Assembly (NCBI GenBank): GCA_964490075.1
Contig: CAZBBK010000002.1
Location: 50,105 to 114,104, forward strand
Reading direction: 5' to 3'
DNA: 64,000 bases
Origin: an uncultured Gemmatimonadota bacterium
GTDB lineage: Bacteria; GCA-2686955
Below, one piece after another: positions 4,241 to 40,739 of this stretch. Numbering within the stretch: the first letter of the stretch is position 1; each line of letters begins with the position of its first letter. Position numbers and translations under genes: made by a program. Below the pieces are notes generated by a model. It saw only the letters and a program-made list of their open reading frames with translations. It was not told the DNA's origin and did not search any database.

Positions 4241-5889
4241 TGCGAGTGCTGATCGGCGGCTTCATGGGCAGCGGCAAGACCGTCGTAGGTCGTGCCCTGG
4301 CAGGGGCTCTGGGGACGGAGTTCATCGATCTCGACGAGCGGATCGAGGCGGCGGCGGGCGCCCCGATTCGAAGCCTCTTCGAGAGCCGCGGCGAGGCGGC
4401 CTTCCGCGCCCTGGAGCGCGAGCAGCTGACCCGCATTCTGGCCCGCCCCGGCCCCTTGGTGCTGGCCACCGGCGGCGGCGCGCTGCTCGACCCCCGGAGC
4501 GCCGCGTTGGCGCTGGCCGAATGCCACGTCTTTCGTCTGAGCGCCTCGCCAGCCGAGCTGGCCCGCCGCCTCTCCGGCTCCTCGGAGCGGCCGCTGCTGG
4601 ACCGCCCGCCCGGCGAGGACCTCGAGCAACACATCGCCGCCCTGGCCGCGGCCCGCGAATCGGCCTACCGCCGCTGCGGCATCTCGCTCAGCACCGAGGG
4701 GCGCACGCCGGCCGAAGTGGTGACGCTGCTCCGGGCCTTCCTCGGTCTGGCGCCCTTGCCGGTCGAGCACGGACCGGGCCGCCGCTATCAGGTGATCGCC
4801 GAGCCCGCCGCGCTCGACAAGCTCGGTTCGCTGCTGCGCCAGGCCTGGAAACACGGCGACGGCATCCTGGGCCGCGGACTGCCGCTGCCGCCCGGGGCGC
4901 CGGTGGTGGTGATCGCCGACCGCCGCGCCTGGAAGCTGCACGGCGAACGGCTCGAAGCGGCGCTGCGCGCCGTCGATCTGCGGCCGATGGTGCGCCCGGT
5001 GGCGGGCGGCGAACGCAGCAAATCGCGCGCGATGCTGGCCCGGATCCAGGACTTCCTGCTCGAGCGCGGCGTCGAGCGCGGCACGCCGGTGGTCGCCTTC
5101 GGCGGAGGCGTGATCGGCGATCTGGCGGGCTTCGCGGCGGCCACGGTGCTGCGCGGGTTGCCGGTGGTGCAGGTCCCAACCACCCTGCTGGCCCAGGTCG
5201 ACTCGTCGATCGGGGGAAAGGTGGCGGTCGATCATCCGCGCGGCAAGAACCTGTTGGGCGCCTTCCATCCGCCCAGCCTGGTGGTGGCTGATCCGGAGCT
5301 GCTCGCCACGCTGCCGCCGCGCGAGCGACGCTGCGGCCTGGCGGAGATCGTCAAGATGGCCCTGCTCGGCTCGCCGGGGCTTTTCGGGGCGCTCGAGGCG
5401 GCCGGAGGCGAGCCCGGCCCCGAGCTGCTGGGTCGGGCGATCCGCGAATCGATCGCCCTGAAGGCGGAGGTGGTGCGCGCCGATCCCGAGGAGGCCGGGA
5501 TGCGCCGAATCCTGAACCTCGGGCACACCCTGGGACACGCCATCGAACGCTGCAGCGAGTCCTGGCGCGCGTCGCACGGCGAGGCGGTGGCGGTCGGGCT
5601 GATCGGGGCGCTGCGCCTCGGTGCGCGCACGGGGCTCACCCCCGCGGCCCTCGATGCTAGAGTCGGCGCCTGTCTGCGGGCGCTGGGGCTGCCGGTGACC
5701 GTGCCCAACCTGCGGCCGGAGGCGATCGTCGCCGCACTGGCCCTCGACAAGAAGCGAAGCGAGGGGCGCATCGCCTGGGTGCTGCTGCGCGAGCTCGGCG
5801 AGCCGGCGATCAGATCCGATGTCCGCGCGCAGGATGTCGCCGCCGTCGCCGCCGACCTGACCGGCACCGAGGAGAAGGGCGCCTCATGA
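4240..5889 (+). CDS. aroKB: bifunctional shikimate kinase / 3-dehydroquinate synthase (AroK-AroB fusion)
   Basis: ATG 4240 overlapping the aroE TGA; N-terminal P-loop GFMGSGKTVVGRALA (shikimate kinase) runs through a short linker into DHQ synthase (GGGVIGDLAGFAAATVLRG...VDSSIGGKVAV...NLGHTLGHAIE) with no stop between them; about 549 aa. Confidence 0.85.
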   Translation: MRVLIGGFMGSGKTVVGRALAGALGTEFIDLDERIEAAAGAPIRSLFESRGEAAFRALEREQLTRILARPGPLVLATGGGALLDPRSAALALAECHVFRLSASPAELARRLSGSSERPLLDRPPGEDLEQHIAALAAARESAYRRCGISLSTEGRTPAEVVTLLRAFLGLAPLPVEHGPGRRYQVIAEPAALDKLGSLLRQAWKHGDGILGRGLPLPPGAPVVVIADRRAWKLHGERLEAALRAVDLRPMVRPVAGGERSKSRAMLARIQDFLLERGVERGTPVVAFGGGVIGDLAGFAAATVLRGLPVVQVPTTLLAQVDSSIGGKVAVDHPRGKNLLGAFHPPSLVVADPELLATLPPRERRCGLAEIVKMALLGSPGLFGALEAAGGEPGPELLGRAIRESIALKAEVVRADPEEAGMRRILNLGHTLGHAIERCSESWRASHGEAVAVGLIGALRLGARTGLTPAALDARVGACLRALGLPVTVPNLRPEAIVAALALDKKRSEGRIAWVLLRELGEPAIRSDVRAQDVAAVAADLTGTEEKGAS

Positions 5890-6368
5890 CCGCGAAACGC
5901 AAGATCCTGGTCCTGAACGGACCCAATCTCGACCTCCTGGGGAAGCGAGAGCCGGAGATCTACGGCACGCTGAGCCTGGCGGATATCGAGAACAAGATCG
6001 AAGCGCACGCCCGCGCCCGAAGCGCCGCGGTCGAGTGCCGCCAGTCCAATCACTCGGGGCAGCTGATCGAGTGGCTCCACGAGGTCGAGGGGGTACTGGG
6101 AGTCGTGCTCAACGCCGGTGGACTGACCCATTTCGACGTGGCGCTGCGCGACGCGGTGGCCGCGCTGGAGCGACCGCTGGTCGAGGTGCACATCTCCAAC
6201 ATCCACGCCCGCGAGCGCTTTCGACGACGCTCGCTGATCGCGGCGGTCGCCGTTGCCCAGATCTCCGGGCTCGGCTGGCGCGGCTACCTGTCCGCGGTCG
6301 ATTTCCTGATCGACGAGTTCGGCGCCAAGAGCGACCTCGGATTCCGCGCGGGGGCGGCGCCCTCGTGA
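5886..6368 (+). CDS. aroQ: type II 3-dehydroquinate dehydratase
   Basis: KILVLNGPNLDLLGKREPEIYG...HISNIHAREXFR signature; 160 aa; ATGA overlap with the upstream gene. Confidence 0.9.
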   Translation: MTAKRKILVLNGPNLDLLGKREPEIYGTLSLADIENKIEAHARARSAAVECRQSNHSGQLIEWLHEVEGVLGVVLNAGGLTHFDVALRDAVAALERPLVEVHISNIHARERFRRRSLIAAVAVAQISGLGWRGYLSAVDFLIDEFGAKSDLGFRAGAAPS

Positions 6369-7243
6369 GCGCCGAGGAGCGCTCTTCGAACGAGCACCCC
6401 CCGGGCCGCTTCGCCTCGCTGGCGCCCCGCGCGGGGGTGGCGGTGGTGCTGGTCCCGATCCTGATCTGGGCCGGCATCCGCGCCTCGTGGGAGATCTGGC
6501 TGATCGTCAACCTCAGCTTCGCAATCGCGATCGGCGAGTGGCGAGGCCTGGCCCGTGCGCGCGGCCGCCGCATTCCACTGCCGCTCTTCGCCGCGGCGGT
6601 GCTGCTGGCGGTCAACACCGGGTTCTGTCCCGATCCCGCCGCGCCGCTCTTCGCCCTGACGCTGGCGCTGATGCTGCTCGCGATCGAACGCACCTTGCGG
6701 CCGCCGGTGGAGGGGATGGCGGCCGATCTCGGCACCACTTTGACCGGCCTCCTCTACCTGGGCCTGCTCGGCTCCTTCATCCCCAAGCTGCTGCTGATCA
6801 CGGTCCCCGGACACCCGTCACCATCTTATATGTCAATTGGCTCTGCCTCTTTCTTCATCCTCTTCATCACCACCTGGGCGACCGATACGGCGGCCTACTT
6901 CTCCGGCCTGCTGCTGGGCCGGCACGCGCTCTTCCCCGCGGTCAGCCCCAAGAAGACGGTGGAGGGACTGGTGGGCGGGGTGCTGGGGGCGGCGTTGGCC
7001 GGATGGATCGCGTCGCAGAGCTTCGCCCCCTTCCTGCGGCCCTGGGACGGCATCGGCCTGGGCGCGGCCCTGGCCTTGATCGGGCAGCTCGGCGACCTGG
7101 TCGAGAGCTCGCTGAAGCGCGATGCGGGGGTGAAGGACGCGTCCAGCATTCTGCCGGGACACGGCGGGATGCTCGATCGCCTCGACTCGTTGCTCTTCAC
7201 CGCCCCCTGCGCCTATCTCTATCTGCGCATCGTGCTCGGGTGA
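6365..7243 (+). CDS. cdsA: phosphatidate cytidylyltransferase
   Basis: GTG 6365 overlapping the aroQ stop; multi-TM protein; C-terminal KRDAGVKDASSILPGHGGMLDRLDSLLF CdsA signature; start codon uncertain. Confidence 0.78.
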   Translation: MSAEERSSNEHPPGRFASLAPRAGVAVVLVPILIWAGIRASWEIWLIVNLSFAIAIGEWRGLARARGRRIPLPLFAAAVLLAVNTGFCPDPAAPLFALTLALMLLAIERTLRPPVEGMAADLGTTLTGLLYLGLLGSFIPKLLLITVPGHPSPSYMSIGSASFFILFITTWATDTAAYFSGLLLGRHALFPAVSPKKTVEGLVGGVLGAALAGWIASQSFAPFLRPWDGIGLGAALALIGQLGDLVESSLKRDAGVKDASSILPGHGGMLDRLDSLLFTAPCAYLYLRIVLG

Positions 7244-7301
7244 ATCTGCCGATGTCAATGAAAGACAACTACTTCCGGCGTTCTCAGCGATCCCGCCGAG
7301 C

Positions 7302-7330
7302 TTGCTCTCGCAGGCGGCCGCCCCTATATT
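7302..7330 (+). promoter_or_regulatory. sigma70-like promoter candidate upstream of rseP (TTGCTC - 17 nt - TATATT)
   Basis: sits in the only AT-richer 120 bp gap of the plus-strand array, about 35 nt upstream of the rseP ATG; GTGAGGA RBS follows. Confidence 0.35.
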
Positions 7331-7363
7331 GCTCTGCGCACCGTGACACCGCCGTGAGGACCC

Positions 7364-8728
7364 ATGGCTGACCTCTTCGCACCCGGCCTGAGCTTCGTCG
7401 AGGACGCGCTCGTCTTCATCCTCAGCCTGGGCCTGATGATTTTCTTCCACGAGCTTGGCCACTTCGCCGTCGCCAAGTGGTGTGACGTGCGCGTGCGGAC
7501 TTTCTCGATCGGGATGGGACGCAAGATCCTGCGCTACCAGCCGGGGGAGACCGAGTACGCGATCAGCGCCATCCCTTTCGGCGGCTACGTCAAGATGTCG
7601 GGCGAAACGCCCGAGGATCTGCGCGGCGGCGACGGGCGCGATTTCGCCTCGAAAGGGCTCGCCGCGCGCGCGGCCATCGTGCTCGCCGGTCCGGCCATGA
7701 ACGTGGTCCTGGCCTTCGTGATCCACTATGGCCTCTGCCTCGCGTTGGGAATCGAGGGGCCGCGCCCGGTCGGGATCCAGATGGTTCAGCCCGGATCGGC
7801 CGCCTTCGATGCCGGCCTGCAGGTGGGCGATCGCATCGCGCGCATCGACGGCGTGGAGATGGGATCGCCGCTGGACGTCGTCGAGGCGGTGCGCGGCGGC
7901 CCTCGGGGCGCGGCGTTGGCGCTGGAGATCGCGCGCGAGGACCAACATTTGAGCCTGCGCGTGACGCCGCGATTCGACGACTCTCTGGGCGTGCCCTTGC
8001 TCGGCGTGCGCACTCAGGCGATCCTGGAGCCGGTGGTCGGTTCGGTGAAGCGCGGAGGCACGGGCGAGGAAGCCGGTTTCCGCGAAGGGGATCGAGTGCT
8101 AACGGTGGCCGACGACCCGGTCGAGTGCTGGCGCGATGTGCAGGTGGCACTCTCCGACGCCATCGATCGCGAGATCGAGGTCGCGGTGCTGCGCGCGGGG
8201 GAGCGACACCCGCTGACCCTGATGCCCACGACCAACCCATTGGCACCGGAACGTCCCGACGGCACGCCGCTGGCCGATGTCGGGATGGTGCCGCAGGAGC
8301 TGCGCATCCAGGTGTCGTGGATCGGCGCGCTCGATGCGGCGCTGGTCGCCACCTGGCACGACAGCGTCTACCTCTTGGAGAGCCTGCGCCAGATCCTGAC
8401 CTTCCAGGTCGGCCGCGAAAGCGTCGCGGGACCGGTCGGGATCGCCACCGTGATCGCCGAGACCTACGCCTACGGGTTCGATCGGTTGCTCCGTCTGGTG
8501 GCCCTGATCAGCGTCAACCTGGCGGTGATCAACCTCTTTCCCTTCCCGGTGCTGGACGGCGGGCAACTGGTCTTCTTCACCATCGAAGCGGTGACGCGGC
8601 GCCCTCTGAACGAGCGGGTGATGATCATCGCCAATCAGATCGGAGTCGTGGTGCTGCTCCTGCTCTTCGTCTTCCTGACCCTCAACGACATCGATCGGAT
8701 TCTGCCCTTCTCGATCCTCGGGGGCTAG
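7364..8728 (+). CDS. rseP: RIP site-2 zinc metalloprotease (M50, RseP-like) with PDZ domains
   Basis: HELGHF zinc motif in TM1, PDZ region, and LDGG motif (NLFPFPVLDGGQLVFF); 454 aa. Confidence 0.88.
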   Translation: MADLFAPGLSFVEDALVFILSLGLMIFFHELGHFAVAKWCDVRVRTFSIGMGRKILRYQPGETEYAISAIPFGGYVKMSGETPEDLRGGDGRDFASKGLAARAAIVLAGPAMNVVLAFVIHYGLCLALGIEGPRPVGIQMVQPGSAAFDAGLQVGDRIARIDGVEMGSPLDVVEAVRGGPRGAALALEIAREDQHLSLRVTPRFDDSLGVPLLGVRTQAILEPVVGSVKRGGTGEEAGFREGDRVLTVADDPVECWRDVQVALSDAIDREIEVAVLRAGERHPLTLMPTTNPLAPERPDGTPLADVGMVPQELRIQVSWIGALDAALVATWHDSVYLLESLRQILTFQVGRESVAGPVGIATVIAETYAYGFDRLLRLVALISVNLAVINLFPFPVLDGGQLVFFTIEAVTRRPLNERVMIIANQIGVVVLLLLFVFLTLNDIDRILPFSILGG

Positions 8729-8734
8729 CGGACG

Positions 8735-9322
8735 ATGCGCATCATCGCTTCCTCGGCGCTGGTGGCCGCGATCGCGCTGGCCGGCTGCACCCCGGCGCCG
8801 CCGCTCGATCCGGACGATGGTGGTCCCCAGTCCTGGATCCTGACCCGCGCTTCGCATCCGACCGGTTTCGGGCGGTCCGACTGCTTCAGCGCCGGTTGCC
8901 ACGCCGAGGCCGGCTTTGGCTACGACGCCGGCTCCGACGAGCATCTGCTCCCCGAGCTCTCGTGCGTCGCCGGCGACTGCCACGGCGACAACGGCATTTT
9001 CGAGCAGAGCCTGGTCACCGGAAAGGTCTACGCCGACGCCGGCGGCGGCGAGGTGGAGCAGGGAATCGTGGTGATCGCCGAAGAGGCCGGCAATCCTCAG
9101 AACAGCGTGGAGGCCGCCCCCAGCGACAGCGACGGGCAGTTCAGCCTGGTGCTGCCGCAGATCGGCACTTACGACTTCGTGCTCCGCGACCGCAACGACG
9201 CCACCACTCGCTCGATCGACCACGGCATGAGCAGCCTGACGATCGGCGGCGACCCGGAGCGCTCCCTCGACTGCGGCGAGTGCCATGGACGCAGCGCCGG
9301 CTTCCTGGCGCCGGTCCGCTAG
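8735..9322 (+). CDS. lipoprotein with one CXXCH and two CX4CH motifs (possible c-type heme- or metal-binding lipoprotein)
   Basis: signal peptide plus lipobox LAGC; motifs CFSAGCH, CVAGDCH, CGECH; lies between rseP and the Omp85 gene. Confidence 0.55.
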   Translation: MRIIASSALVAAIALAGCTPAPPLDPDDGGPQSWILTRASHPTGFGRSDCFSAGCHAEAGFGYDAGSDEHLLPELSCVAGDCHGDNGIFEQSLVTGKVYADAGGGEVEQGIVVIAEEAGNPQNSVEAAPSDSDGQFSLVLPQIGTYDFVLRDRNDATTRSIDHGMSSLTIGGDPERSLDCGECHGRSAGFLAPVR

Positions 9323-9383
9323 GAGGCTGTTGCGCATAGGCTTTCGATTTCGATCGGTGGCTCCGAGGCCGTAGACTGGCGCC

Positions 9384-11270
9384 GTGGTGTTTCGCTCTTC
9401 TCGGCCCGTTCCCCCCCCCGCCGTGCTCCTGTTGCTGCTCGCCTGCCTCCTCGTGTCGGCAGGCGCCGGGCGGGCGCGGGCGGCTTGGAGCGACGAGCAG
9501 CCGCCGCTCGCCATCCGCTCGATCCGCTTCGAGGGCAACCGCGAGCTCTCGCGCGCCTCCCTGCTCGACGCGATGCAGCTCTCCGAGGCCACCACGTGGC
9601 GCCGCACCCTCGGCCTGGAAGATATCGAGTTCGATCCGCTCAAGTACCAGATGGACGTGCGCGCGATTCGCTATCGCTACCAGCGCCAGGGCTTCGTACG
9701 CGCCGCCGTGAAGGCCGAGCGGGTGCGCGTCGACTCGCTGGCTCAAGCGGTCGACCTGGTGATCAACATCGAGGAGGGGCCCCGCTACCGCTTCGGACGG
9801 GTATCGGTGCAGGGCGCCGCGCTGATCGATCCCGAGAATATCTGGCCGCTGCTCGGCACCCGCCCGGGCGAGCCGGCCAACCTGCACCAGGTGAAAGCCG
9901 ACGCCGGCACGGTGCGCACCCACTACCGCAACCGCGGCTTCGTGCGCGCCCGGGTCGACTTTGAGAACACGATTCGTGAGGACGATTGGAGCGTCGATAC
10001 CGTCTTCCAAATCAACGAAGAGCAGCCCTACACGATCGGCAAGGTCTACACCCGAGGCAATCTCGAAACCCGTGACGCGATCGTGCTCCGCGAGATCGCC
10101 ACGCGAGGGGGTCAGCTCTACAACCTCGAGACGGTCCTATCCGACGAGCGCAATCTCTACAACACCGGGCTCTTTTCCGGCGTCAAGGTCAGCGAATCGG
10201 CGCTCGACTCGATCCGCCACACCGTGAACCTGCGGGTCGAGGTGATCGAGCGCAGCCCGCGCTGGATCTCCTTCGCGCTCGGTTCGAGCACCGATGAACG
10301 CGAAAACGTGCGCCTCTCCGCCGATTGGGGCCACAAGAACCTCTTCGGCACCGCCCGCCTGGTGACCCTGCGCGGCCTCGCCACCTGGCAGTTCAGCCGC
10401 TTCTTCGACAAGCGCAAGCTCGACCCGATCGCCAGCCGGGTCGAGATCGCCTATCTGCAGCCCTGGATCTTCGGCTACCGGATCAGCGTCGGAGGCACGG
10501 TGTTCAGCGCCCAGGAGATCCCCCTCGGGCGCCAGGACCGGCTCAGCACCCACGGCATCACCGCCCGGCTCCTGCGCCGCATCGGCACCGAGGCCGAGCT
10601 CTACCTCGAGCCGAAGCTGCAGTGGGCCAACGAGTCGACCGAGGATCGCATCCTCGACCGCGACATCAGCCAGACCAAGAGCGTCACCCTTGCCTATCGC
10701 CGCGACTCGCGCCTCAACGTCTTCGCGCCGCGCCGCGGCACCGCCACCAGTCTCACATTGACCCACGCCGGCGGGGTGCTCGGCGGCGACTTCGATTTCC
10801 GCCGCGCCACCGCCAGCCATGCCCGCTTCCTCGACCTGGGCGACGGCAGCGTCGCCGCGGCGCGCCTCTCCTGCGGCGCCGCGGCCCCCTTCGACGACTC
10901 GGACGAAATCCCCCTCGACCAGGTCTTCACGGCCGGCGGCGCCAGCACGGTGCGCGGCTACCTGGAAGGGGGGCTCGGCACCGCCGACACGCCCGAAGAG
11001 GGGGGACGGGTGCTGCTCCTGGCCAACCTGGAGCTGCGCCAGCGCATCGCCGGCTACTTGGGCATCGCCCCCTTCCTCGACGGCGCTCAGGTCTGGCCCT
11101 ACCTCTCGGCGCTCCGACCGGTGGCCGATATGCGATGGAGCACCGGCGCCGAGCTGCGCTACCAGACCCCGATCGGACCCTTGCGCATCGGCTACGGAGT
11201 GAAGCTCAACCCGGCCGCCGGAGATCCCCATCCGGGATCGTGGTTCTTCGGTTTCGGGCAGGTGTTCTGA
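9384..11270 (+). CDS. bamA: Omp85-family outer membrane protein assembly factor (BamA/TamA-like)
   Basis: signal peptide, POTRA-like repeats, C-terminal beta-barrel ending in an aromatic residue (...GFGQVF); sits in the cdsA-rseP-bamA context and directly upstream of tamB. Confidence 0.78.
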   Translation: MVFRSSRPVPPPAVLLLLLACLLVSAGAGRARAAWSDEQPPLAIRSIRFEGNRELSRASLLDAMQLSEATTWRRTLGLEDIEFDPLKYQMDVRAIRYRYQRQGFVRAAVKAERVRVDSLAQAVDLVINIEEGPRYRFGRVSVQGAALIDPENIWPLLGTRPGEPANLHQVKADAGTVRTHYRNRGFVRARVDFENTIREDDWSVDTVFQINEEQPYTIGKVYTRGNLETRDAIVLREIATRGGQLYNLETVLSDERNLYNTGLFSGVKVSESALDSIRHTVNLRVEVIERSPRWISFALGSSTDERENVRLSADWGHKNLFGTARLVTLRGLATWQFSRFFDKRKLDPIASRVEIAYLQPWIFGYRISVGGTVFSAQEIPLGRQDRLSTHGITARLLRRIGTEAELYLEPKLQWANESTEDRILDRDISQTKSVTLAYRRDSRLNVFAPRRGTATSLTLTHAGGVLGGDFDFRRATASHARFLDLGDGSVAAARLSCGAAAPFDDSDEIPLDQVFTAGGASTVRGYLEGGLGTADTPEEGGRVLLLANLELRQRIAGYLGIAPFLDGAQVWPYLSALRPVADMRWSTGAELRYQTPIGPLRIGYGVKLNPAAGDPHPGSWFFGFGQVF

Positions 11271-14200
11271 TGCGCCGCAGACGACGCATCGCCTGGCGCG
11301 TGCTGCTCGCGGTGGCGGCGCTCGGACTGCTGGTGGGCATCGTGTTCCGGGTCGGCGCCGGCTGGCCCATGACCCGCGCCCTGCTCAACGCCACGCTGCT
11401 GGAGCCCTTCGATTGTGAGCTGGCCGGCGGTCGCGTGCGCTGGTCGCTGGTGCCGCGGGTGCGGATCGACGCCCGCGACGTTTCGCTGCTGGGGGCTGGA
11501 TTCACGGCCTCGGTGGGACGCTTCCATGCCCAGCTCTCGGGTGTCGAGCTGCTGGCCGGAAAGCTGGCCCTCTCCGAGCTGCACGCCGAAAAAGTGCGCA
11601 TCGACCTGGCGGCGGGACAGGGAGGCGCGGAGACGCCGCAGCTCCCCGATCCGGCCGCGCTCGCCCTGCCCCTGACGCGGCTGCGCTGCGAGAGCATCGC
11701 GCTGGAGGATCTGCTCCTGACCCGGGAAGGCTCATCGGCCGACTTCGAGCTGGCGGTGCTCAGCGGCAGCCTCGATCGCCGCCCCGAGGGTCCGACCCTG
11801 GCGATCGACACCCTCGCCGCCTTGGTCGAGCTGCCCCAACCCTTGATTCTGCGCGCGGCGGGCGCGGAGCTCGTGGCCTGGCCCGAACGCTTCCAGGCGC
11901 GCAAGCTCTGCGCCGAGATCGGCACCGGAAGGCTCGAAGGCGACGCCGGCCTGTGGCCGGGGGCGCAGGGTCCCGCCTGGGAGCTCGAGCTCGACTTCGA
12001 CCGCTTCTCGCTGCAAGCCATCCGCGGCCTGGTCGACGCCACGCTGACCCGCGCCGAGAGCCGCCTGAGCGGCCATCTGCAGGCGCGCGGCGAGGCCGAC
12101 ACCATCCACTTCGCGGGTCGCGTGCAGGGATTCGTCGATCCGATCGAGATCGATGCCGAGGCGGTCGCCGGCTGGTGGGACGGCACCGAGCTGGTGCTGG
12201 CGCAGGGGCGCGGGCTCGTCGAAGAGATCGGGATCGACGTGGCCAGCGCGGCGATCGATCCGCGCACTCAGGACTACCGGCTGCAAGGGATCGTGAGCGA
12301 CTTCGACCTGGAGCCCCATCTCGACTTCATGGCCGGCACCGTGCTGAGCGGGCCGGTGGAGCTGGAAGGCTCGCATTTCGGCGGCGAGGAGCTCTGGATC
12401 GACGCCCGGGCAGCGCGGCTGCAGGGCTCGGTGTTCGGACTTGCGCTGGAAGGAGGCGCCCTGGACCTGCGCTACGCCGATCAGCACTTCGCCTTCGACA
12501 GCCTGAGGGTCGGCTGGCCGGGCGCCGCCGTGGCCGCGCGCGGCACGGTCGACCTCGACAGCGAGCGCATGCGCTGGGACGGCCATCTGGCGCTGCGGCC
12601 GGAATCCCCCTTCTTCGCCAGCTTCGTGCCGGTCGAGGGGCTGCGCTGTGCGCTGCGGGCCGACGGGCGTCTTGGCGGTCCCCTGGAAACTCCCCGCCTG
12701 ACCGCCACCTACGCCGGCGGGCACCTCGAGTACGGCGCCCTGCTGCTGGACGAGCTGCGCGGCGAGGTCGATCTCGATTCGGTGTTCCATCGGCCGACCG
12801 GCCGAGCCGCGCTGCGCGGCGCGGGCGCTCTCGGCGTGCTGCCGATCACCATCGACGAGAGCGCGCTGGTGGTGCGCGGACGCGAGCTCTTCCTCACGGA
12901 GCTCTTGGCCCACCAGGAGCGGCGCCGGATTCGCGCCAGCGGCCCGCTGCGAATCGACCAGGGGTTGTCCGGAGACCTCGGCGAGCTGGCCCTCGACTCG
13001 CCCTTCGGTGGGGCGGTGGCGGGCGACACGGTGCACTTCGCGAGCGATTCGATCGCCTTCCACCTCGCGCCCACCACGATCCACCTGGCCGGCGGCGACC
13101 TGAGCCTGGAGGGTCGCTGGAGCGGGGAAGAGGGGCTGGACATGGGCTTCGCCTGTGAGCGCATCGATCTCGAGCGCCTGGTGCGCCTCGGGGGCGGCGC
13201 GGCGCGCAGCGCGGCGGGGCGGCTGAGCGGCCAGGGACGAATCAAGGGCACTTTCGAGGATCCCGGCGTCAGCGGCGAGTGGCGCGTGGAGGGACTCCAG
13301 GTCGGGCCGGCGCACCTAGGCGAGCTGCGCGCGGGAGCCGCCCTGCGGCACGGGCGGATCCACGTCGATCACCTCAGAGCCCAGCACCGCGGCTCGACGC
13401 TGCGCGCCTTCGGGGACTATCCGCTCGGACCTCAGCTCGGCTGGCATCCCCTTCCAGGCGCGCCCGACAGCGTCTTCCTCAACCTGGAGCTGGAGGAGTG
13501 GAGCCTGGCCGAGCTGGGAGCGCTGGTGGCACTCGATTCGCTGGGCGGCCAGGTCGACGCGCACGCACGGCTCTCGGGCACCCTGGCCGCACCGCAGCTC
13601 GCCCTCTCGGCCGACGCCTTCGCGCTGACGGTGCTGGGGGACGACTACGGCGAGCTCAGCCTCGAGACCGAGTTCCAGGCCGGCCGGCTACACCTCCGGG
13701 CCCGCGACCAGGCCGGTTCCCAGGCTCGCGGCACGGTACCCTTCGACTTCACACTGGCGCCGCCCGCCTTCGCCCCGGGGGACGATTCGCTGAGCGTCGA
13801 GCTCAGCCTGCGAGAGATCGACGCCGCCTTCCTGCGCCATCTGGTTCCCGACATCGACTCGGCCGGCGGCCCTTTGAGCTTCGAAGGGCGTCTCGGAGGG
13901 CAGCTGCCCTGGCCCGACGCCTATGGCGAGCTGCGGGCCCGGCAGGGGAGGGTGCGCCTGATCTGGATGGACGTGCCGCTGCACGCGATCTCGGGCAGGG
14001 TGCGAGTCGACGGAACGCGGGCACGGGTCGAGCGGGCCACCGGCCGCATGGGGGCCGAGGGGCGCTTCGAGGCTGCCGGGTTGGTGCGCCTCGACGACTT
14101 CGTGCCGGTCGACTACGACCTGGAGGTGAGCGGCAAGGCGCTGCCGATCGGCTGGATTCCCGATCTGCGTGCGGTGGTGGACGCCGATCTGCGCTTTGCC

Positions 14201-15121
14201 GACAACGTCCACATCAGCGGCGACGTCCAGGTGCACGAGGCGGTCTACAGCCGCGCCTTCGGCGAGGAGCCGGAGCCGATTCCGCCGCCCGCCTTGCCGG
14301 GCGAGGAGCTGCCCTTCGCGCTCAGCTACGACTTGATGCTCGAAGGCGATCGCAACATCTGGCTGCGCAACACCGAAGCGGAGATGGAGCTGCGCGGCAA
14401 GGCGCACCTGCAGAGTCTGGCCGAGTACGACGAGCTGCCCTTCACCATCCAGGGCGAGCTCGAGGTGATCCGCGGCACCTATACCCTGCTGGGCAAGAAC
14501 TCGTTCGAGATCGAGCGCGGCACGATCCGCATGCTCGATCCCTCGGTCCTCGATCCGGAGATGGAGGTCGAGGCGCGGGCCACCTTGCGTGAGCGGGTGC
14601 GCGACGAACAGGGCCGCTACCAGAGCCGCTCCGTGCCGATCCATCTCTCCCTCACCGGGGAGTTCTTTTCCGACCTGACCTACCAGTTCACCGATCTGTC
14701 GCAAGGCCACGCCCCGATCCCGATCGAGGACATGGTCCTGCTGCTCACCTTCGGGCGGCGCCGCGCGGCCATCGATCAAGGCGGTCTCTACGACCAGAGC
14801 ACGGCCGCCGCCGACGCCAGCGCCATCACCGCCCAGCTGCTGGAGACCCGGGTCAGCGAGCTGCTCGATATCTCGCTCGACATCAGCACCGGCAGCAGCT
14901 CCCCCCTGGAGTCGCTCGACGAGACCTACGTGGGACTCGGCAAGTATCTGAATCCGAAGCTCTTCGTCTACTACAGCCAGTACCTCTCCGCCGACCCGCG
15001 GCGGCGCCTGGGCGTGGAGTACGCCTTCACCGACCAGGTGCTGGTCGCCGGCGAGCTCGACGAGACCGATCCCAACGCCTCGCGCTACAACGTCGATCTG
15101 CGCTACCGGCTGGAGTACTGA
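11270..15121 (+). CDS. tamB: translocation and assembly module protein TamB (AsmA-like, DUF490 C-terminus)
   Basis: ATG 11270 overlaps the bamA stop; N-terminal signal-anchor MRRRRRIAWRVLLAVAALGLLVGIV; about 1283 aa; C-terminus ...LGKYLNPKLFVYYSQYL...NVDLRYRLEY typical of TamB. Confidence 0.8.
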   Translation: MRRRRRIAWRVLLAVAALGLLVGIVFRVGAGWPMTRALLNATLLEPFDCELAGGRVRWSLVPRVRIDARDVSLLGAGFTASVGRFHAQLSGVELLAGKLALSELHAEKVRIDLAAGQGGAETPQLPDPAALALPLTRLRCESIALEDLLLTREGSSADFELAVLSGSLDRRPEGPTLAIDTLAALVELPQPLILRAAGAELVAWPERFQARKLCAEIGTGRLEGDAGLWPGAQGPAWELELDFDRFSLQAIRGLVDATLTRAESRLSGHLQARGEADTIHFAGRVQGFVDPIEIDAEAVAGWWDGTELVLAQGRGLVEEIGIDVASAAIDPRTQDYRLQGIVSDFDLEPHLDFMAGTVLSGPVELEGSHFGGEELWIDARAARLQGSVFGLALEGGALDLRYADQHFAFDSLRVGWPGAAVAARGTVDLDSERMRWDGHLALRPESPFFASFVPVEGLRCALRADGRLGGPLETPRLTATYAGGHLEYGALLLDELRGEVDLDSVFHRPTGRAALRGAGALGVLPITIDESALVVRGRELFLTELLAHQERRRIRASGPLRIDQGLSGDLGELALDSPFGGAVAGDTVHFASDSIAFHLAPTTIHLAGGDLSLEGRWSGEEGLDMGFACERIDLERLVRLGGGAARSAAGRLSGQGRIKGTFEDPGVSGEWRVEGLQVGPAHLGELRAGAALRHGRIHVDHLRAQHRGSTLRAFGDYPLGPQLGWHPLPGAPDSVFLNLELEEWSLAELGALVALDSLGGQVDAHARLSGTLAAPQLALSADAFALTVLGDDYGELSLETEFQAGRLHLRARDQAGSQARGTVPFDFTLAPPAFAPGDDSLSVELSLREIDAAFLRHLVPDIDSAGGPLSFEGRLGGQLPWPDAYGELRARQGRVRLIWMDVPLHAISGRVRVDGTRARVERATGRMGAEGRFEAAGLVRLDDFVPVDYDLEVSGKALPIGWIPDLRAVVDADLRFADNVHISGDVQVHEAVYSRAFGEEPEPIPPPALPGEELPFALSYDLMLEGDRNIWLRNTEAEMELRGKAHLQSLAEYDELPFTIQGELEVIRGTYTLLGKNSFEIERGTIRMLDPSVLDPEMEVEARATLRERVRDEQGRYQSRSVPIHLSLTGEFFSDLTYQFTDLSQGHAPIPIEDMVLLLTFGRRRAAIDQGGLYDQSTAAADASAITAQLLETRVSELLDISLDISTGSSSPLESLDETYVGLGKYLNPKLFVYYSQYLSADPRRRLGVEYAFTDQVLVAGELDETDPNASRYNVDLRYRLEY

Positions 15122-16332
15122 TGCGAGCCTTCGGTCGCAAGCTGCCGCCGCTCTCGTCGACCCTCTTGATGGTCTACGTGCTCCTCGGCGCGGTGCTCGC
15201 CACCGGCGGCGCATTCCTCTACGTCCACGGTCTGCTGCGCGCCCTCAAGCAGGACGCGCAGGTGGTGAGCGAGGTCTACGGGCGTTTTTGCACCATTGCC
15301 GGCGATCCCGACGGCGACGCCGAGGCGCTCGACGTGATCTTCGACCATGTCATCCGGCGCATCGACTTCCCGGTGATCATCACCGACGCCGAAGGGGTGC
15401 CGCGCCACTGGGTCAACGTCGGCCTGGCCCCCGATGCCGACGATCCAGCACGCCTGCTCTCGATGATCGACGAGATGGATCGCCGTGCGGCGCCGATCGA
15501 TGTGCGGGTCGGACGCGAGGGACCGCTGATCAGCCGCGTCCACTTCGCCGAGTCCGATCGGATCAAGGACCTGCGCCGGATCCCTTTCATTCTGGTCGGC
15601 GTGATCCTGCTCTTCTTCGGGGTCGGGCTGTGGATCATCTACCTGCTGCGCGAGCAGGAACATCGGGCGCTCTGGGTCGGATTGGCGCGCGAGACCGCTC
15701 ACCAGCTCGGCACCCCGCTCTCCGGCCTGGCCGGATGGGTCGAGCTGCTCGGCGAGGGCAGTCTCGGCCCCGAGGCGGCCGCGGCGGAGATGACGGTGGA
15801 GCTCACCCGCCTGGAGGCGGTGGCGTCGCGTTTCAGCCGCATCGGTTCGCGGCCGCAGCTCGATGCCGTCGATCTGGGCGCGGTGGTGGGCGAGGTGATC
15901 GAGCGTTTTCGGCGCCGCTCCAGCTCCTCGGTGGTGCGCTTCGAGGAGGCGCACGATTCCGACGCCGTGGTGCGCGGCGACCGCCAGCTGCTGGCCTGGG
16001 TGGTCGAGAACCTGGTCGGCAACGCCGTCGACGCCTGCCGTGCGGGCGGCGATCATGGCACCATCTCGGTGCGCTGCGCGATCGACGCCGAGGCCGGCCG
16101 CATCCGCCTCCAGGTGGGCGACGACGGCCGCGGCATGACACTGAACGAGGCCCGCCGCGCCTTTCGCCCCGGCCACACCACCAAGGCAACCGGCTGGGGA
16201 CTGGGACTGGCGCTGGCGCGTAGAATCGTGGAGGACGATCATGGCGGGCGCATCTTCTGCGCCCGAACCCGCCCCGGCGAGGGCACCACCATCGAGGTGC
16301 AGCTACCGCTCCACCTGTCGCATCCGAGCTGA
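15121..16332 (+). CDS. two-TM sensor histidine kinase (PorY-like architecture)
   Basis: start overlaps the tamB stop; two TM helices, H-box HQLGTPLS, HATPase_c (GNAVDA...DDGRGM...GWGLGLALA). Confidence 0.8.
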   Translation: MRAFGRKLPPLSSTLLMVYVLLGAVLATGGAFLYVHGLLRALKQDAQVVSEVYGRFCTIAGDPDGDAEALDVIFDHVIRRIDFPVIITDAEGVPRHWVNVGLAPDADDPARLLSMIDEMDRRAAPIDVRVGREGPLISRVHFAESDRIKDLRRIPFILVGVILLFFGVGLWIIYLLREQEHRALWVGLARETAHQLGTPLSGLAGWVELLGEGSLGPEAAAAEMTVELTRLEAVASRFSRIGSRPQLDAVDLGAVVGEVIERFRRRSSSSVVRFEEAHDSDAVVRGDRQLLAWVVENLVGNAVDACRAGGDHGTISVRCAIDAEAGRIRLQVGDDGRGMTLNEARRAFRPGHTTKATGWGLGLALARRIVEDDHGGRIFCARTRPGEGTTIEVQLPLHLSHPS

Positions 16333-16334
16333 TC

Positions 16335-17885
16335 ATGCCCAGTCCCGCACACATCCTCTGGGTCGACGACGAGATCGACAGCCTGCGCTCGCTCCTGGTG
16401 TCGCTGGAGAGCGCCGGCCACCGCGTCACGGCGGTCACCAACGGCGACGACGCGATTCAGCATCTGCGCCGCGGCGGGATCGACCTGGTGCTGCTCGACG
16501 AGATGATGACCGGCCTCGACGGGATCGCGACGCTGGTCGCGATGCGCGAGATCGACCCCGCGGTCCCGGTGGTGATGGTGACCAAGATCGAGGAAGAGGA
16601 GCTGATGAACCGCGCCTACGAGGCGCGCGCCGACGACTACCTGATCAAGCCGGTGCGCCCCTCGCAGGTGCGGGCCGTGATCAAGAAGCTGCTCGACTCC
16701 GAGCGCATCGTGGGGGAGGGGATCCGGCGCAACTACGGTCGCGAGATGGCGCGCGTCGGCGCCGAGCTTTCCGAAGGGCTCGATGCCGAGGGCTGGATCG
16801 AGACCGCGCACTGGCTCTTTCGGCGCCAGATCGAGCTGGAGCGGCTGCGCGATGCGGTGCTGCTCGACACCCACGCCGGCCTGCGCCGGGATGCCAACCG
16901 CGCCTTCTTCCGCCACCTGGCGGCGGCCTATCCGAGCTGGCTCGAAGAGGGGGGACCGCTGCTCTCGCACCGCGTCGTGGAGCGCAAGGTGGTGCCGCAT
17001 CTGCGCCAGGGCGAGCGGGTGCTCTTCCTGGTGCTCGATTGCGTGCGCGCCGACCAGTGGATGGCGCTGGAGCCGCACCTGCGCCGGCTCTTCGCGGTGG
17101 AGCCGGCCTTCGGCCTTTCGCTCTTGCCGACCGCCACCCCCTTTGCCCGCAACGCGCTTTTCGCGGGCCAGCTTCCGGCGCAGATTCGCCGTCTCCATCC
17201 CGCGCTCTGGGAGGACGATTTCTCCGTGGAGAGCTCGCTGAACCGCCACGAGAAGGAGCTCTTGCGCCTGGCCCTGCGCGAGCACGGCCTCGGCGGCTGC
17301 TCGTTTCGCTACGAGCGGGTCGACGGTGGCGCGGCGGCCCAGCAGCTGGCGCAGCGCCTGGCTTCGGCCTCCGACGTGCAGCTCTACGCGGTGGTCTACG
17401 GCTTCGTCGACATCCTGGTGCACAAACGCAGCGAGTCGGAGGTGATCCAGGAGATCACCGCCACCGAGGCGGCCTACCGCGCCCTGACCGCCACCTGGTT
17501 CGCCCACTCGCCGCTGCGCGCCGTGCTGGCGGCCGCCGCCAAGGCGGGTCGCACGGTGGTGCTCACCTCCGACCACGGCTCGGTCACCGTGCAGCGCCGC
17601 GCCGGGGTGGTCGGCGATCGCCGCACCACCACCGCGGTGCGCTACAAGATCGGCCGCAATATCCACGCCGATCCCCGCCACGCCCTCGACATCCGCGATC
17701 CCGAGCGCTGGGGCCTGCCGACGCCCTCGATCAACAGCAACTACCTGGTCGCCTCGGAGGACCATTTCTTCGTCTATCCGAACCAGCAGCGGGCCTACGA
17801 GCGGCGCCTGACGGGCACCCTGCAGCACGGCGGCGCCAGTCTCGAGGAGATGGTGGTCCCGGTGGCCACCCTGAGGCCGCGATGA
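16335..17885 (+). CDS. response regulator with receiver domain fused to an alkaline-phosphatase-superfamily (PglZ-like) domain (PorX-like architecture)
   Basis: N-terminal CheY-like REC (ILWVDDE...DLVLLDEMM...LIKP); C-terminal about 350 aa with a VVLTSDHGSV metal-site motif; 516 aa, which is the size of PorX. Confidence 0.65.
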   Translation: MPSPAHILWVDDEIDSLRSLLVSLESAGHRVTAVTNGDDAIQHLRRGGIDLVLLDEMMTGLDGIATLVAMREIDPAVPVVMVTKIEEEELMNRAYEARADDYLIKPVRPSQVRAVIKKLLDSERIVGEGIRRNYGREMARVGAELSEGLDAEGWIETAHWLFRRQIELERLRDAVLLDTHAGLRRDANRAFFRHLAAAYPSWLEEGGPLLSHRVVERKVVPHLRQGERVLFLVLDCVRADQWMALEPHLRRLFAVEPAFGLSLLPTATPFARNALFAGQLPAQIRRLHPALWEDDFSVESSLNRHEKELLRLALREHGLGGCSFRYERVDGGAAAQQLAQRLASASDVQLYAVVYGFVDILVHKRSESEVIQEITATEAAYRALTATWFAHSPLRAVLAAAAKAGRTVVLTSDHGSVTVQRRAGVVGDRRTTTAVRYKIGRNIHADPRHALDIRDPERWGLPTPSINSNYLVASEDHFFVYPNQQRAYERRLTGTLQHGGASLEEMVVPVATLRPR

Positions 17886-18367
17886 GCACCTGGATGAGCC
17901 GCTCGGTCGGCGCCACGCGGCGTCTGGGCGAGGCGCTCGGTCGCGCCGCCGAGCCGGGCGACTGCCTCTTGCTGCGCGGGCCGCTGGGCGCGGGCAAGAC
18001 CGAGCTGGTGCGCGGGCTGGCGCGCGGGCTCGGCTGCACGGCGCGGGTGCGCTCGCCCACCTTCAACCTGGTGCACCGCCTGGAAGGGGGGCGGCTGGTC
18101 CTGCACCACCTCGATCTCTACCGGATCGAGGATCCGCGCGAGCTGCGCGAGCTGGGACTGGAGGAGGCGCTGGGGGGGGAAGGGGTGGCGGCGGTCGAGT
18201 GGAGCGAACGACTGGGGGGGCACGCTCCCGCGGCGGCGCTTACTTGCGATCTGGCGCTCGAAGGCGAGAGCCGGCGCAGCATCCGCCTGGAGGCGCGTGG
18301 CGAGCATTGCGCGCGTTGGCTGCATGCCGCGCGCCGGGAGGGCTGGGATGAAGATCCTGGGTATTGA
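17882..18367 (+). CDS. tsaE: tRNA t6A37 biosynthesis ATPase TsaE
   Basis: internal ATG overlapping the RR stop; Walker A GPLGAGKTELVRGLARGLG; about 161 aa. Confidence 0.8.
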   Translation: MSTWMSRSVGATRRLGEALGRAAEPGDCLLLRGPLGAGKTELVRGLARGLGCTARVRSPTFNLVHRLEGGRLVLHHLDLYRIEDPRELRELGLEEALGGEGVAAVEWSERLGGHAPAAALTCDLALEGESRRSIRLEARGEHCARWLHAARREGWDEDPGY

Positions 18368-19049
18368 AGCGTCGGGCGCCATCAGCGGCGCGGCGCTGCT
18401 CATCGATGAGCACGGACCCAGCACCGTGGAGCTGGCCGGGCGCGGGCGCCACGCGCGAAGCGTGAGCGAGGCGGTGGCGATGCTGCTACAGAGCCTCGAC
18501 CTGGAGCCGAGCGCCGTCGACCTGGTCGCGGTCGGCCGCGGACCCGGCTCATTCACCGGCGTGCGGGTGGCGATGGGAGTGGCGAAGGGCTTCGCCGTGG
18601 GCCGCGGGATCGAGATCGTCGGGGTGTCGTCGCTAGCGGCGATCGCGGCGTCGGCCTGTGTCGAAGGCTCGGTGGTGCTGGCGGCCGCCGACGCCCGGCG
18701 CGGCGAAATCTACGCCGGCCTCTTCGCGCCCGATCCGACCGCGCTCTTGCCCCTGCCGCTGAGCGAAGAGGTCGCCATCGGCCTGCCGCGGCTCGGCGGC
18801 TGGCTGCGCGCCGGGCTGCCCAAGGGGCTCGCTCTCACGGTCGCCGGCGATGGGGCCGAGAAGGCGGCCGCGGCGCTGCTGGACGATCCCGAGCTGGAGC
18901 TCCCGGTGCGCCTCGCGGCACCGGAGGCACGCCGCTCGGCCGCGCCGGGATGCGTCGCTCGTCTCGGCCTGGCCCGCCACCGCGCCGACGGCGCCGATGA
19001 TCCCGAAGCCCTCGATCCGGTCTACATCCGGCCGGGGGTGGGAGGATGA
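18348..19049 (+). CDS. tsaB: tRNA t6A37 biosynthesis protein TsaB (YeaZ)
   Basis: MKILGIEASGAISGAALL...GRGPGSFTGVRV; placed in a tsaE-tsaB-rimI arrangement. Confidence 0.8.
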   Translation: MKILGIEASGAISGAALLIDEHGPSTVELAGRGRHARSVSEAVAMLLQSLDLEPSAVDLVAVGRGPGSFTGVRVAMGVAKGFAVGRGIEIVGVSSLAAIAASACVEGSVVLAAADARRGEIYAGLFAPDPTALLPLPLSEEVAIGLPRLGGWLRAGLPKGLALTVAGDGAEKAAAALLDDPELELPVRLAAPEARRSAAPGCVARLGLARHRADGADDPEALDPVYIRPGVGG

Positions 19050-19519
19050 AGACCCGCCGCGCCTTCGCCACCGACCTGCCGCGCCTGCTCGAGCTGGAGC
19101 GGCGCATCTTTCCCGATCCCTGGTCGCGGGAGATGTTCCTCGAGCAGATGGCGGAGGGGCTGGTGCTGGTCGCCTCGCTGGAGACGCGGTCCCCGATATT
19201 CGGCTACGTCGCCGCGGTGCGCGAGTATCGACGGGTTCACATCACCAACCTGGCGGTCGAGCGGGGCGAACGGCGGCGGGGGAGCGGTCGCCGGCTGCTC
19301 GATGCCGTGCTCGACGCCGGCCGCAGAGACGGCGCGCGCAGTGCTCTCTTGGAGGTGAGAGCGTCCAACGCGGCGGCCGCCGCCCTGTATACTGCGGCCG
19401 GATTTCGCCCGGTCGGCCGCCGCGCGGGCTTCTACCCGCGCGATCTCATCGGAGCCCGCGAGGATGCCGTGGTCTATCGCCTCGAGCTGCATCCGCTATC
19501 GAACCAGAGCAGTCCATGA
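19046..19519 (+). CDS. rimI: ribosomal-protein-alanine N-acetyltransferase (GNAT)
   Basis: GNAT motif ITNLAVERGERRRGSGRRLL; conserved position after tsaB. Confidence 0.75.
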   Translation: MKTRRAFATDLPRLLELERRIFPDPWSREMFLEQMAEGLVLVASLETRSPIFGYVAAVREYRRVHITNLAVERGERRRGSGRRLLDAVLDAGRRDGARSALLEVRASNAAAAALYTAAGFRPVGRRAGFYPRDLIGAREDAVVYRLELHPLSNQSSP

Positions 19520-40549: not shown

Positions 40550-40620
40550 GAGCTGATCATGGAGGCGCTTCCGGGACCCGTCAACTCCCCGCCTTCAACG
40601 CGACGTCGAAGTCGGCGATC

Positions 40621-40650
40621 CAGGGTCCCGGCGACTTTGCCGGGACCCTG
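40621..40650. repeat. perfect 12-bp inverted repeat CAGGGTCCCGGC-gacttt-GCCGGGACCCTG in the divergent mntA/vapB intergenic region
   Basis: read directly from the sequence; candidate operator or RNA hairpin. Confidence 0.6.
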
Positions 40651-40668
40651 GTCGGCGGTCGGCGAACA

Positions 40669-40697: not shown

Positions 40698-40739
40698 TCA
40701 GATGGCGCCTTCACTCGGCCTGGGAACGCGGAGACTCCA

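Follow-up and report, generated by a model that had tools for sequence, protein, structure and literature searches.

The Omp85-family proteins known as partners of TamB are TamA, TamL and BamA. Outside the TamA and TamL clades, TamB is paired with BamA-derived copies (Heinz et al. 2015, PMC4494059); operons joining bamA to tamB, with neither tamA nor tamL, have been documented, and in Acidobacteria a canonical BamA exists alongside the 'duplicated BamA' copies (PMC4494059). PorX regulates secretion and has phosphodiesterase activity towards cyclic and linear oligonucleotides (PMC9757075); it is phosphorylated by PorY (PMC4800418). In Porphyromonas gingivalis the gene ubK1, a member of the YjeE/TsaE family, was found just downstream of porX in 81 strains (Saran et al., JBC 2026, PMC13241743). 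UbK1 phosphorylates Tyr79 of PorX in vitro; Tyr79 is not broadly conserved, and its mutation leaves export via the T9SS (type IX secretion system) unaffected (PMC13241743). Genes of related kinds meet on one strand of the 64-kb stretch of DNA analyzed here (hereafter the window; positions 50,105 to 114,104 of contig CAZBBK010000002.1, from an uncultured Gemmatimonadota bacterium), where cdsA, rseP, a lipoprotein gene, an Omp85 gene and tamB are followed by a histidine kinase, a REC-PglZ response regulator, tsaE, tsaB and a rimI-like gene.

The region is likely to represent three known modules in one co-directional and highly compacted array, more a product of genome compaction than a purpose-built regulatory circuit. 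The first module, consisting of rseP, a lipoprotein with haem-type motifs, Omp85 and tamB, would serve envelope biogenesis. The second is a predicted PorY-type kinase together with PorX, a pair controlling type IX secretion in Bacteroidota, in which the kinase would phosphorylate Asp55 of PorX. The third, running from tsaE, tsaB and the rimI-like gene to accD and folC, is presumed to be housekeeping. Modules two and three would form an ancient syntenic block of the Fibrobacterota-Chlorobiota-Bacteroidota (FCB) superphylum, and the first module appears to have been put directly upstream of it only in this marine lineage.

The gene map of the whole window is based on codon usage and was checked against Pfam and NCBIfam; at a G+C content of about 70%, simple lists of open reading frames (ORFs) were crowded with spurious frames. 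An array without interruption occupies the + strand from 47 to 28837, in the order trpB, trpA, aroA, aroE, aroK-aroB, aroQ, cdsA, rseP, lipoprotein, Omp85, tamB, histidine kinase, REC-PglZ regulator, tsaE, tsaB, RimI-like GNAT, a secreted protein of 631 amino acids (aa), purine-nucleoside phosphorylase, accD, folC, WbqC, ABC ATPase and an LptD-like gene. All genes named in the original prediction, from cdsA to rimI, were recovered by Pfam, NCBIfam and the gene map at their predicted places and in the predicted order on the + strand. The limits proposed for the array, aroQ/cdsA on one side and rimI on the other, do not hold: its real extent is from trpE, upstream of the window, to the LptD-like gene ending at 28837. 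The genes trpE-G-D-C-F, which also overlap and lie on the same strand, were found within 10 kb upstream of the window, with trpE about 4.5 kb upstream. The window sequence corresponds to a metagenome contig of 162-185 kb (JGI 3300009128). The genes trpEGDCFBA, aroA, aroE, the aroK-aroB fusion and aroQ form one overlapped + strand array running into cdsA (window 47-6368; locus L090 5523-10017), of which cdsA is the last gene.

Between cdsA and rimI the junctions are overlaps of 1-20 nucleotides (nt) or gaps of 2-61 nt, with the exception of a 120-nt gap before rseP. As read from the sequence of the + strand, aroQ (5886-6368) overlaps cdsA by 4 nt, 61 nt separate the lipoprotein gene from Omp85, and both Omp85/tamB and tamB/kinase are joined by TGATG with a 1-nt overlap. 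A 2-nt gap separates kinase and regulator, tsaE and tsaB overlap by 20 nt, and an ATGA motif with a 4-nt overlap links regulator and tsaE, tsaB and rimI, and rimI and the gene for the secreted 631-aa protein (g17). The overlaps previously noted at Omp85/tamB, tamB/kinase and regulator/tsaE were thus found as described, and the one assigned to kinase/regulator is the 2-nt gap. Translational coupling is likely at the TGATG and ATGA junctions. Tight packing is a general property of this DNA: overlaps occur in 26 of the 44 co-directional gene pairs of the window (19/33 outside the studied region, 7/11 inside it), coding density is about 96%, and the same ATGA and TGATG junction types join unrelated genes, for example aroQ/cdsA, rimI/g17 and nucleoside phosphorylase/accD. 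Because unrelated genes overlap throughout this genome, overlaps cannot by themselves indicate purposeful co-regulation.

The regulator gene, located at 16335-17885 (+), encodes PorX. Its product matches NCBIfam model NF052313 with 550.8 bits (cut-off 300) over profile positions 2-513 of 513, contains the Pfam domains Response_reg and PglZ, and matches the P. gingivalis PorX structure 7PV7 with 399 bits over residues 4-516. The receiver residues D11, D12, D55, T83 and K105 and the PglZ residues D235, T268, D359, H363, D413, H414 and H498 are invariant in 84 homologues; D55 aligns with D58 of P. gingivalis, and the PglZ phosphodiesterase site is intact. The kinase gene (15121-16332, +) encodes a protein with the Pfam domains HisKA and HATPase_c and two transmembrane segments (approximately residues 13-36 and 153-178), between which lies a periplasmic domain of about 115 aa. 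No PorY model was among the matches of an NCBIfam scan of the kinase, and a PDB search returned only generic matches to the catalytic core. In the sensor domain, F74, F83, P84, D89, P94, W97, L151, R152 and P155 are invariant between the window kinase and those kinases of Eisenbacteria, Ignavibacteria and Zixibacteria whose genes immediately precede porX. Judged by layout and sensor domain for the kinase and by profile and catalytic residues for the regulator, the two-component system is PorX with a PorY-type kinase and not a generic pair.

For the comparison of gene neighborhoods, the PorX alignment was scanned against one genome per species, which yielded at least 80 loci with the labels KSB1, Ignavibacteria, Eisenbacteria, Zixibacteria, Latescibacterota, Marinimicrobia, Cloacimonadota, Calditrichota, Chlorobiota, Balneolaceae, Rhodothermales and many Bacteroidota. 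Neighbors were counted by local phmmer and hmmsearch comparison of the window proteins with six-frame ORFs of these loci. The best match was 46% identical in the PorX genome scan and 40% identical in a metagenome scan with the kinase; the window lineage is not among the matches listed, to which all counts from both scans refer. Immediately in front of porX, 12 of 74 loci carry a full-length kinase orthologue, and all 12 are outside Bacteroidota; in the metagenome scan, only 6 of 61 kinase orthologue loci have porX as the next gene. Such low kinase-porX adjacency is consistent with the 'orphan' state of the two genes in P. gingivalis.

Downstream of porX the picture is one of long-standing order. 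The window gene tsaE (17882-18367, +) encodes a P-loop ATPase/kinase of the YjeE/UbK type (TIGR00150, 106.9 bits, cut-off 60.1), and its translation contains Walker A GPLGAGKT, SPT, HLDLYR and EW, according to the motif definitions of PMC13241743. It is followed by tsaB (18348-19049, +), the dimerization subunit of the N6-threonylcarbamoyladenosine (t6A) complex (TIGR03725, 124.2 bits, cut-off 69.3), and by the gene for a RimI-like GNAT acetyltransferase (19046-19519, +; Pfam Acetyltransf_1; TIGR01575 82.8 bits, below the cut-off of 86.4). The downstream end of the block is formed by accD-folC at 22290-24484 (+), with Pfam Carboxyl_trans and Zn_ribbon_ACC, Mur_ligase, and a folC match to TIGR01499 of 301 bits. 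Among the matches listed, 55 of 76 informative loci, covering at least 10 phylum-level labels, have tsaE as the next gene after porX on the same strand, and tsaB then follows in 31 of 71. The complete series porX-tsaE-tsaB-rimI-accD-folC recurs in Ignavibacteria, Eisenbacteria, Zixibacteria, KSB1 and Marinimicrobia, and the porX-tsaE pattern is also seen in the precomputed Pfam annotation of three metagenome contigs. The adjacency of porX and tsaE is the ancestral arrangement across the FCB phyla. Coupling of this regulator to tsaE is not unusual, because it is ancestral there and has been described for P. gingivalis; the unusual regulatory coupling which the original prediction had read from tight packing is accordingly not upheld, overlap being the norm in this DNA and the regulator-tsaE link being widespread.

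In the two Rhodothermales loci L016 and L017, folC stands directly after porX, as if the tsaE-tsaB-rimI-accD segment had been excised. Four loci (L023, L032, L049 and L060) show the typical FCB porX-tsaE context despite the labels Limnocylindria, Chromatiales and 'Methanobacteriota archaeon'; these contigs of metagenome-assembled genomes were probably mis-binned or mislabelled.

Such persistence of gene order raises the question of a functional bond, in which porX-tsaE would be a conserved signalling pair and TsaE a UbK-type kinase that modifies PorX, beyond mere inheritance of the order. The adjacency is kept across phyla despite differing upstream flanks, the window TsaE carries all UbK motifs, the ATGA overlaps of porX and tsaE in the window and in two relatives (L092 and L093) suggest translational coupling, and the in vitro phosphorylation of PorX by UbK1 in P. 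gingivalis (PMC13241743) supplies a precedent. The precedent does not transfer to the same residue: the equivalent of Tyr79 is Ala76 in the window PorX and is highly variable across the 84 homologues, and in P. gingivalis mutation of Tyr79 spares T9SS export (PMC13241743). Furthermore, tsaE followed by tsaB and a rimI-like gene is the usual t6A context, and among the matches listed the porX-tsaE adjacency is mostly lost in Chitinophagales (1/8) and Rhodothermales (0/2). In the literature searched, no paper besides PMC13241743 was found that treats PorX together with TsaE or YjeE. We regard such a signalling pair as possible, with a chance clearly short of even. As far as these alignments and loci tell, the neighborhood of porX is far more conserved than its one described phospho-site.

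The junction between tamB and the kinase gene is the only new one in the region, and it is confined to one uncultured marine lineage. Three relatives, L092, L093 and L005, with PorX identities to the window of 70%, 67% and 63%, keep the order cdsA-rseP-lipoprotein-Omp85-tamB-kinase-porX-tsaE-tsaB-GNAT-secreted protein-...-accD-folC. The TGATG and ATGA overlaps of L092 and L093 are identical to those of the window; the Omp85/tamB overlap of 1 nt found in these three is replaced by a 1-nt gap in L005. Outside the window lineage, neither TamB nor Omp85 nor rseP was seen beside the kinase or PorX in any of 74 PorX-centered and 42 kinase-centered loci among the matches listed.

The best candidate for a start of transcription lies upstream of the first module. 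The 120-nt gap between cdsA and rseP (7244-7363, +), where the region has its one good sigma-70-like -10 element, likely marks the start of an rseP...rimI transcription unit: the element, TATATT at 7325, precedes the rseP start by 39 nt, and TTGCTC lies 17 nt upstream of it. The sequence CTATATTGC was found at the same place in the relative L093, and the cdsA-rseP gap is the largest in 4/4 lineage members, measuring 120-311 nt. Transcription probably starts in this gap and reads through the genes downstream. Only three hexamers matching TATAAT in at least five of six positions were found on the + strand between 4000 and 24600, of which TATATT at 7325 is the best; the other two are TAGAAT at 16221-16226, inside the 3' end of the kinase gene and 114 nt before porX, and TATACT at 19388, inside the rimI-like gene and 128 nt before g17. 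A scan with the strict sigma-70 consensus gave 0 promoters and nothing above shuffle expectation, a terminator scan found five terminator-like sites against 5.4 expected from shuffles, which is no excess, and Rfam and tRNA scans of the whole window gave no matches. The earlier statement that the 120 bp before rseP is the only gap with promoter-like sequence is therefore borne out in part: the best element lies there, the other two hexamers are intragenic, and the strict scan was empty.

A functional cause for the new junction can also be envisaged, in which PorY/PorX belong to the TAM (translocation and assembly module) operon because the pair senses or controls outer-membrane assembly, so that co-transcription serves a purpose. 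TAM may, for instance, be required by the large type IX barrels, or the operon may be autoregulated through PorXY. Three lineage members keep the TGATG overlap that joins tamB to the kinase gene and four keep the gene order, both in line with this, as are the presence of a possible type IX cargo gene, g17, in the same array as porYX and the altered abundance of some T9SS-domain proteins upon TamL depletion in Flavobacterium johnsoniae (PMC12045153). The adjacency of tamB and porYX was, however, met nowhere else in the 74 and 42 loci mentioned above, overlaps of the same type join the unrelated pairs aroQ/cdsA, rimI/g17 and nucleoside phosphorylase/accD, the overlaps are lost in L005, and PorX is without a known DNA target here. 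We consider a sensing role of this kind improbable.

Compaction of three known modules remains the preferred explanation, and several observations weigh against it. Three lineage members, with PorX identities of 67-100%, share the tamB/kinase TGATG overlap, which could reflect selection for coupling and not chance juxtaposition. The relative L005 has spacers of 70, 91 and 134 nt at tamB/kinase, kinase/porX and porX/tsaE. The hexamer TAGAAT at 16221 could act as an internal promoter for the porX-tsaE block, and we infer co-transcription from gene spacing alone. Finally, no core genes of the T9SS were recognized among the proteins scanned in the 64-kb window.

The Omp85 gene of the first module is located at 9384-11270 (+) and encodes a predicted insertase of 628 aa with a signal peptide; a second gene caller puts the start at 9423, which gives 615 aa. 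Pfam recognizes three POTRA stretches and the Omp85 domain (146 bits). In an AlphaFold2 (AF2) model built from 14 sequences, with a mean predicted local distance difference test (pLDDT) score of 81, the three POTRA units show the beta-alpha-alpha-beta-beta fold (residues 43-130, 136-211 and 217-289) and are followed by a barrel of 16 strands over residues 293-625. The loop-6 motif STVRGY (VRGY/F) is conserved in the alignment. The protein reaches 259.5 bits with the BamA model TIGR03303, below the cut-off of 297.15, over profile positions 148-732 of 741, 91.2 bits with the TamA model NF047950 (cut-off 625) and 93.5 bits with the TamL model NF052279 (cut-off 400). Pairwise, E. coli BamA matches with 87 bits over POTRA3-5 and the barrel, starting from residue 177, and E. 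coli TamA with 63 bits; the top PDB sequence match is BamA of Neisseria gonorrhoeae. A Foldseek comparison with PDB gave E 1.8e-40 for BamA and E 1.5e-33 for full-length TamA (4C00, TM-score 0.76 normalized to TamA), both of them strong, so that the two are not separated by structure. By these comparisons, Omp85 is TamA-like in architecture and BamA-like in sequence, and belongs to neither the TamA nor the TamL nor, at the curated cut-off, the BamA family.

Seven close homologues of the window Omp85 were found, with 54-100% identity, one of them labelled 'Gemmatimonadetes bacterium'. In the four nearest outgroups whose contigs were read, the Omp85 gene is adjacent to tamB in 4/4 cases, one of which also has rseP upstream. 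NCBIfam scans of 57 relatives gave BamA as the best model for all. The best 150 representatives of an exhaustive HMMER search contain two size classes, of about 590-690 aa and 880-950 aa; the extra approximately 330 N-terminal residues of the larger class would correspond to about four more POTRA domains. In a neighbor-joining tree, which is crude and carries no support values, the window protein falls into the short class, with proteobacterial TamA and BamA outside. A TamL-like lipid anchor was considered and rejected: the signal-peptide cysteine of the window protein is absent from the orthologues P0129, P0131 and P0132, which have cleavage sites of the A-x-A type. Because this cysteine is not conserved, the protein is not a TamL-type lipoprotein.

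The original prediction had taken three POTRA domains as the mark of a TamA-like and five as that of a BamA-like protein; Pfam and the AF2 model agree on three, together with a 16-strand barrel, and the protein falls on the TamA-like side. It had further likened the locus to those of lineages without a separate TamA. The tight coupling of Omp85 and tamB is borne out; the idea that a single BamA does double duty is weakened, because three POTRA domains with a 16-strand barrel constitute a TamA-like architecture. As to the claim of a sole Omp85, no other member of the family is encoded in the 64-kb window, and the statement holds within that window only.

The bolder form of that claim is that this is the only Omp85 of the organism, a reduced three-POTRA BamA serving both BAM (beta-barrel assembly machinery) and TAM, as in the arrangement of BamA with TamB that Heinz et al. 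2015 put forward as ancestral. Its position after cdsA-rseP, as for E. coli bamA, speaks for this, as do best profile and pairwise matches to BamA POTRA3-5 and barrel and not to TamA (TIGR03303 259 bits versus 91 for TamA), the lack of another Omp85 in the window and the documented bamA-tamB operons without tamA or tamL (PMC4494059). Against it stand the possession of three and not five POTRA domains, the score below the BamA equivalog cut-off, and the lack of skp-lpxD-fabZ-lpxA after Omp85. The nearest relatives, moreover, comprise a short class of about 600 aa and a TamB-linked class of about 900 aa that resembles the 'duplicated BamA' of Acidobacteria (PMC4494059), and the window is a small part of the genome. 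A sole, doubly employed BamA is on balance unlikely. In the preferred explanation the window protein is most likely, from its modelled architecture, the partner of TamB and a functional analogue of TamA, and its sequence affinities fit the picture of BamA-derived TamB partners drawn by Heinz et al.

The tamB gene (11270-15121, +) encodes a protein of 1283 aa with a Pfam TamB/DUF490 domain (PF04357, 130 bits, cut-off 22.4) at residues 922-1283 and an N-terminal signal anchor formed by a single hydrophobic segment at residues 6-33. Its score of 62 bits with the proteobacterial equivalog NF047952 (cut-off 825) is as expected for a distant, non-proteobacterial TamB. Because of this architecture and the conserved stop/start overlap of the two genes, Omp85 and TamB, the latter anchored in the inner membrane, are most likely partners in a trans-envelope complex of the TAM type, in which the C-terminus of TamB would dock on the Omp85 barrel.

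The remaining genes of the envelope region precede Omp85. The gene cdsA (6365-7243, +) encodes phosphatidate cytidylyltransferase (Pfam CTP_transf_1, 197 bits), and rseP (7364-8728, +) a site-2 intramembrane metalloprotease with PDZ domains (TIGR00054 301.9 bits, cut-off 147.55; Pfam Peptidase_M50 and PDZ). The lipoprotein gene at 8735-9322 (+) encodes 195 aa with a lipobox Cys18, and its product has no Pfam or NCBIfam match above threshold. It contains haem-c-type motifs, CX4CH at 50-56, CX4CH at 77-83 and CXXCH at 180-184, around a small beta-sandwich; the AF2 model is poor, with a pLDDT of 44. Neither Cys18 nor any of the three Cys/His motifs varies among the four lineage members aligned, and only five homologues were found in 5.8 billion proteins. 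The lipoprotein is, on the basis of this search, restricted to the window lineage, and to judge from its motifs it may bind three haems. The genes ResB and CcsA, which belong to System II cytochrome c maturation, are located 8-9 kb upstream of trpB.

A reading that joins the above alternatives would take the porX-tsaE(-tsaB-rimI-accD-folC) block as an ancient, selected unit of all FCB phyla, with PorX and TsaE as a conserved signalling pair acting via a site or mechanism other than Tyr79, and PorXY primarily as a regulator of envelope or translation homeostasis and not as a dedicated T9SS switch. This pair would have been recruited into the transcription unit of a TAM derived from a reduced three-POTRA BamA, maybe the sole Omp85. 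We hold this combination to be improbable.

The gene g17, which overlaps rimI by 4 nt, is located at 19516-21411 (+) and encodes a secreted HExxH protein of 631 aa with a signal peptide and HELQH at residue 254; the match to the MXAN_6640 metalloprotease family is weak. Its C-terminal 100 aa match FlgD_ig with E 3e-4, and those of the L005 orthologue CHU_C with E 8e-5, both below cut-off. With this sub-threshold T9SS-type tail, the protein may be a type IX cargo. The insertion of g17 between rimI and accD is peculiar to the window lineage.

Further downstream, 24563-28837 (+) contains genes for a WbqC-like protein, a MalK-type ABC ATPase with TOBE domains and an outer-membrane protein of the LptD_2 family with 778 aa; the ABC ATPase and the LptD-like gene also occur on the same strand in the relatives L005 and L093. 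Two paralogous secreted BNR/sortilin-like proteins with near-identical N-termini (...AQYPWGP...) and acidic C-termini are encoded at 30574-31986 and 32190-33590, and a subtilase on the opposite strand at 28915-30177. Two N-acetylmuramoyl-L-alanine amidases are encoded at 33669-35957 (-) and 36944-38713 (+); one has two Amidase_3 stretches, and the other is a fusion with an AMIN domain and with an N-terminus resembling TPR/YbgF or BamD. The gene map shows a run of 13 mostly overlapping genes at 41658-56839 (-). Small gene pairs resembling toxin-antitoxin modules are found at 39858-41389, at 63816-63998 and at 276-991 of locus L091, the last being an NTP_transf_2 nucleotidyltransferase/NTase_sub_bind pair just past the window end.

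Compared with known systems, the locus is made up of familiar parts. Its value lies in annotation and in the hypotheses it suggests about two systems, and current understanding is not overturned. The likeness to the E. coli cdsA-rseP-bamA locus noted in the original prediction is confirmed, as the order cdsA-rseP-Omp85 on one strand is that of E. coli ispU-cdsA-rseP-bamA-skp-lpxD. The window differs in having aroQ instead of uppS upstream of cdsA, a lineage-specific lipoprotein inserted before Omp85, and tamB after Omp85 instead of skp-lpxD-fabZ-lpxA.

With TamA-TamB of E. coli the window pair shares an Omp85 with three POTRA domains and 16 strands and a tamB directly after it, whose product of about 1280 aa is anchored at the N-terminus and has DUF490 at the C-terminus; tamA and tamB of E. 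coli also overlap, by 4 nt. Unlike TamA, the window Omp85 lies outside the TamA sequence family, its POTRA domains resemble POTRA3-5 of BamA, and the pair sits after cdsA-rseP and before porYX. The BamA-TamB operons and 'duplicated BamA' copies (PMC4494059) likewise have a BamA-like Omp85 beside tamB; the window contains no Omp85 of the TamA or TamL family, and the nearest relatives of its Omp85 are likewise TamB-linked. The window protein has three POTRA domains, whereas the described cases and the relatives of about 900 aa have five to seven. TamL-TamB of Bacteroidota and Chlorobiota (PMC12045153) belongs to the same superphylum and also provides TamB with a three-POTRA Omp85 partner. In contrast to TamL, the window Omp85 is without a conserved lipobox cysteine, and the two genes overlap, whereas tamL and tamB of Bacteroidota are reported not to share an operon (PMC12045153). 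A short, non-lipidated, BamA-like three-POTRA protein is thereby added to the TamA, TamL and BamA partners of TamB.

With PorX/PorY of P. gingivalis (PGN_1019/PGN_2001) the window shares a full-length PorX with all receiver and PglZ catalytic residues and a kinase of the same layout, with two transmembrane segments and HisKA/HATPase (PMC4800418). The kinase and regulator genes are adjacent in the window and in several non-Bacteroidota FCB lineages, whereas they are orphans in P. gingivalis (PMC4800418); neither T9SS core genes nor SigP were seen in the window, and Tyr79 is absent from its PorX. PorY/PorX, whose study has so far centered on the Bacteroidota P. gingivalis and F. johnsoniae, are thereby placed in a marine FCB lineage that is uncultured and high in GC, and the adjacency of kinase and regulator in several non-Bacteroidota phyla may be the ancestral arrangement. 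The presence of tsaE/ubK directly downstream of porX on the same strand is shared with porX-ubK1 of P. gingivalis (PMC13241743). Compared with the 81 strains of that one species, the pairing is found here in 55 of 76 FCB genomes among the matches listed and reaches on to tsaB-rimI-accD-folC. The porX-ubK1/tsaE neighborhood is thus extended from one species to most of the superphylum, and as the phospho-site is not conserved along with it, the question of what links PorX to TsaE is sharpened.

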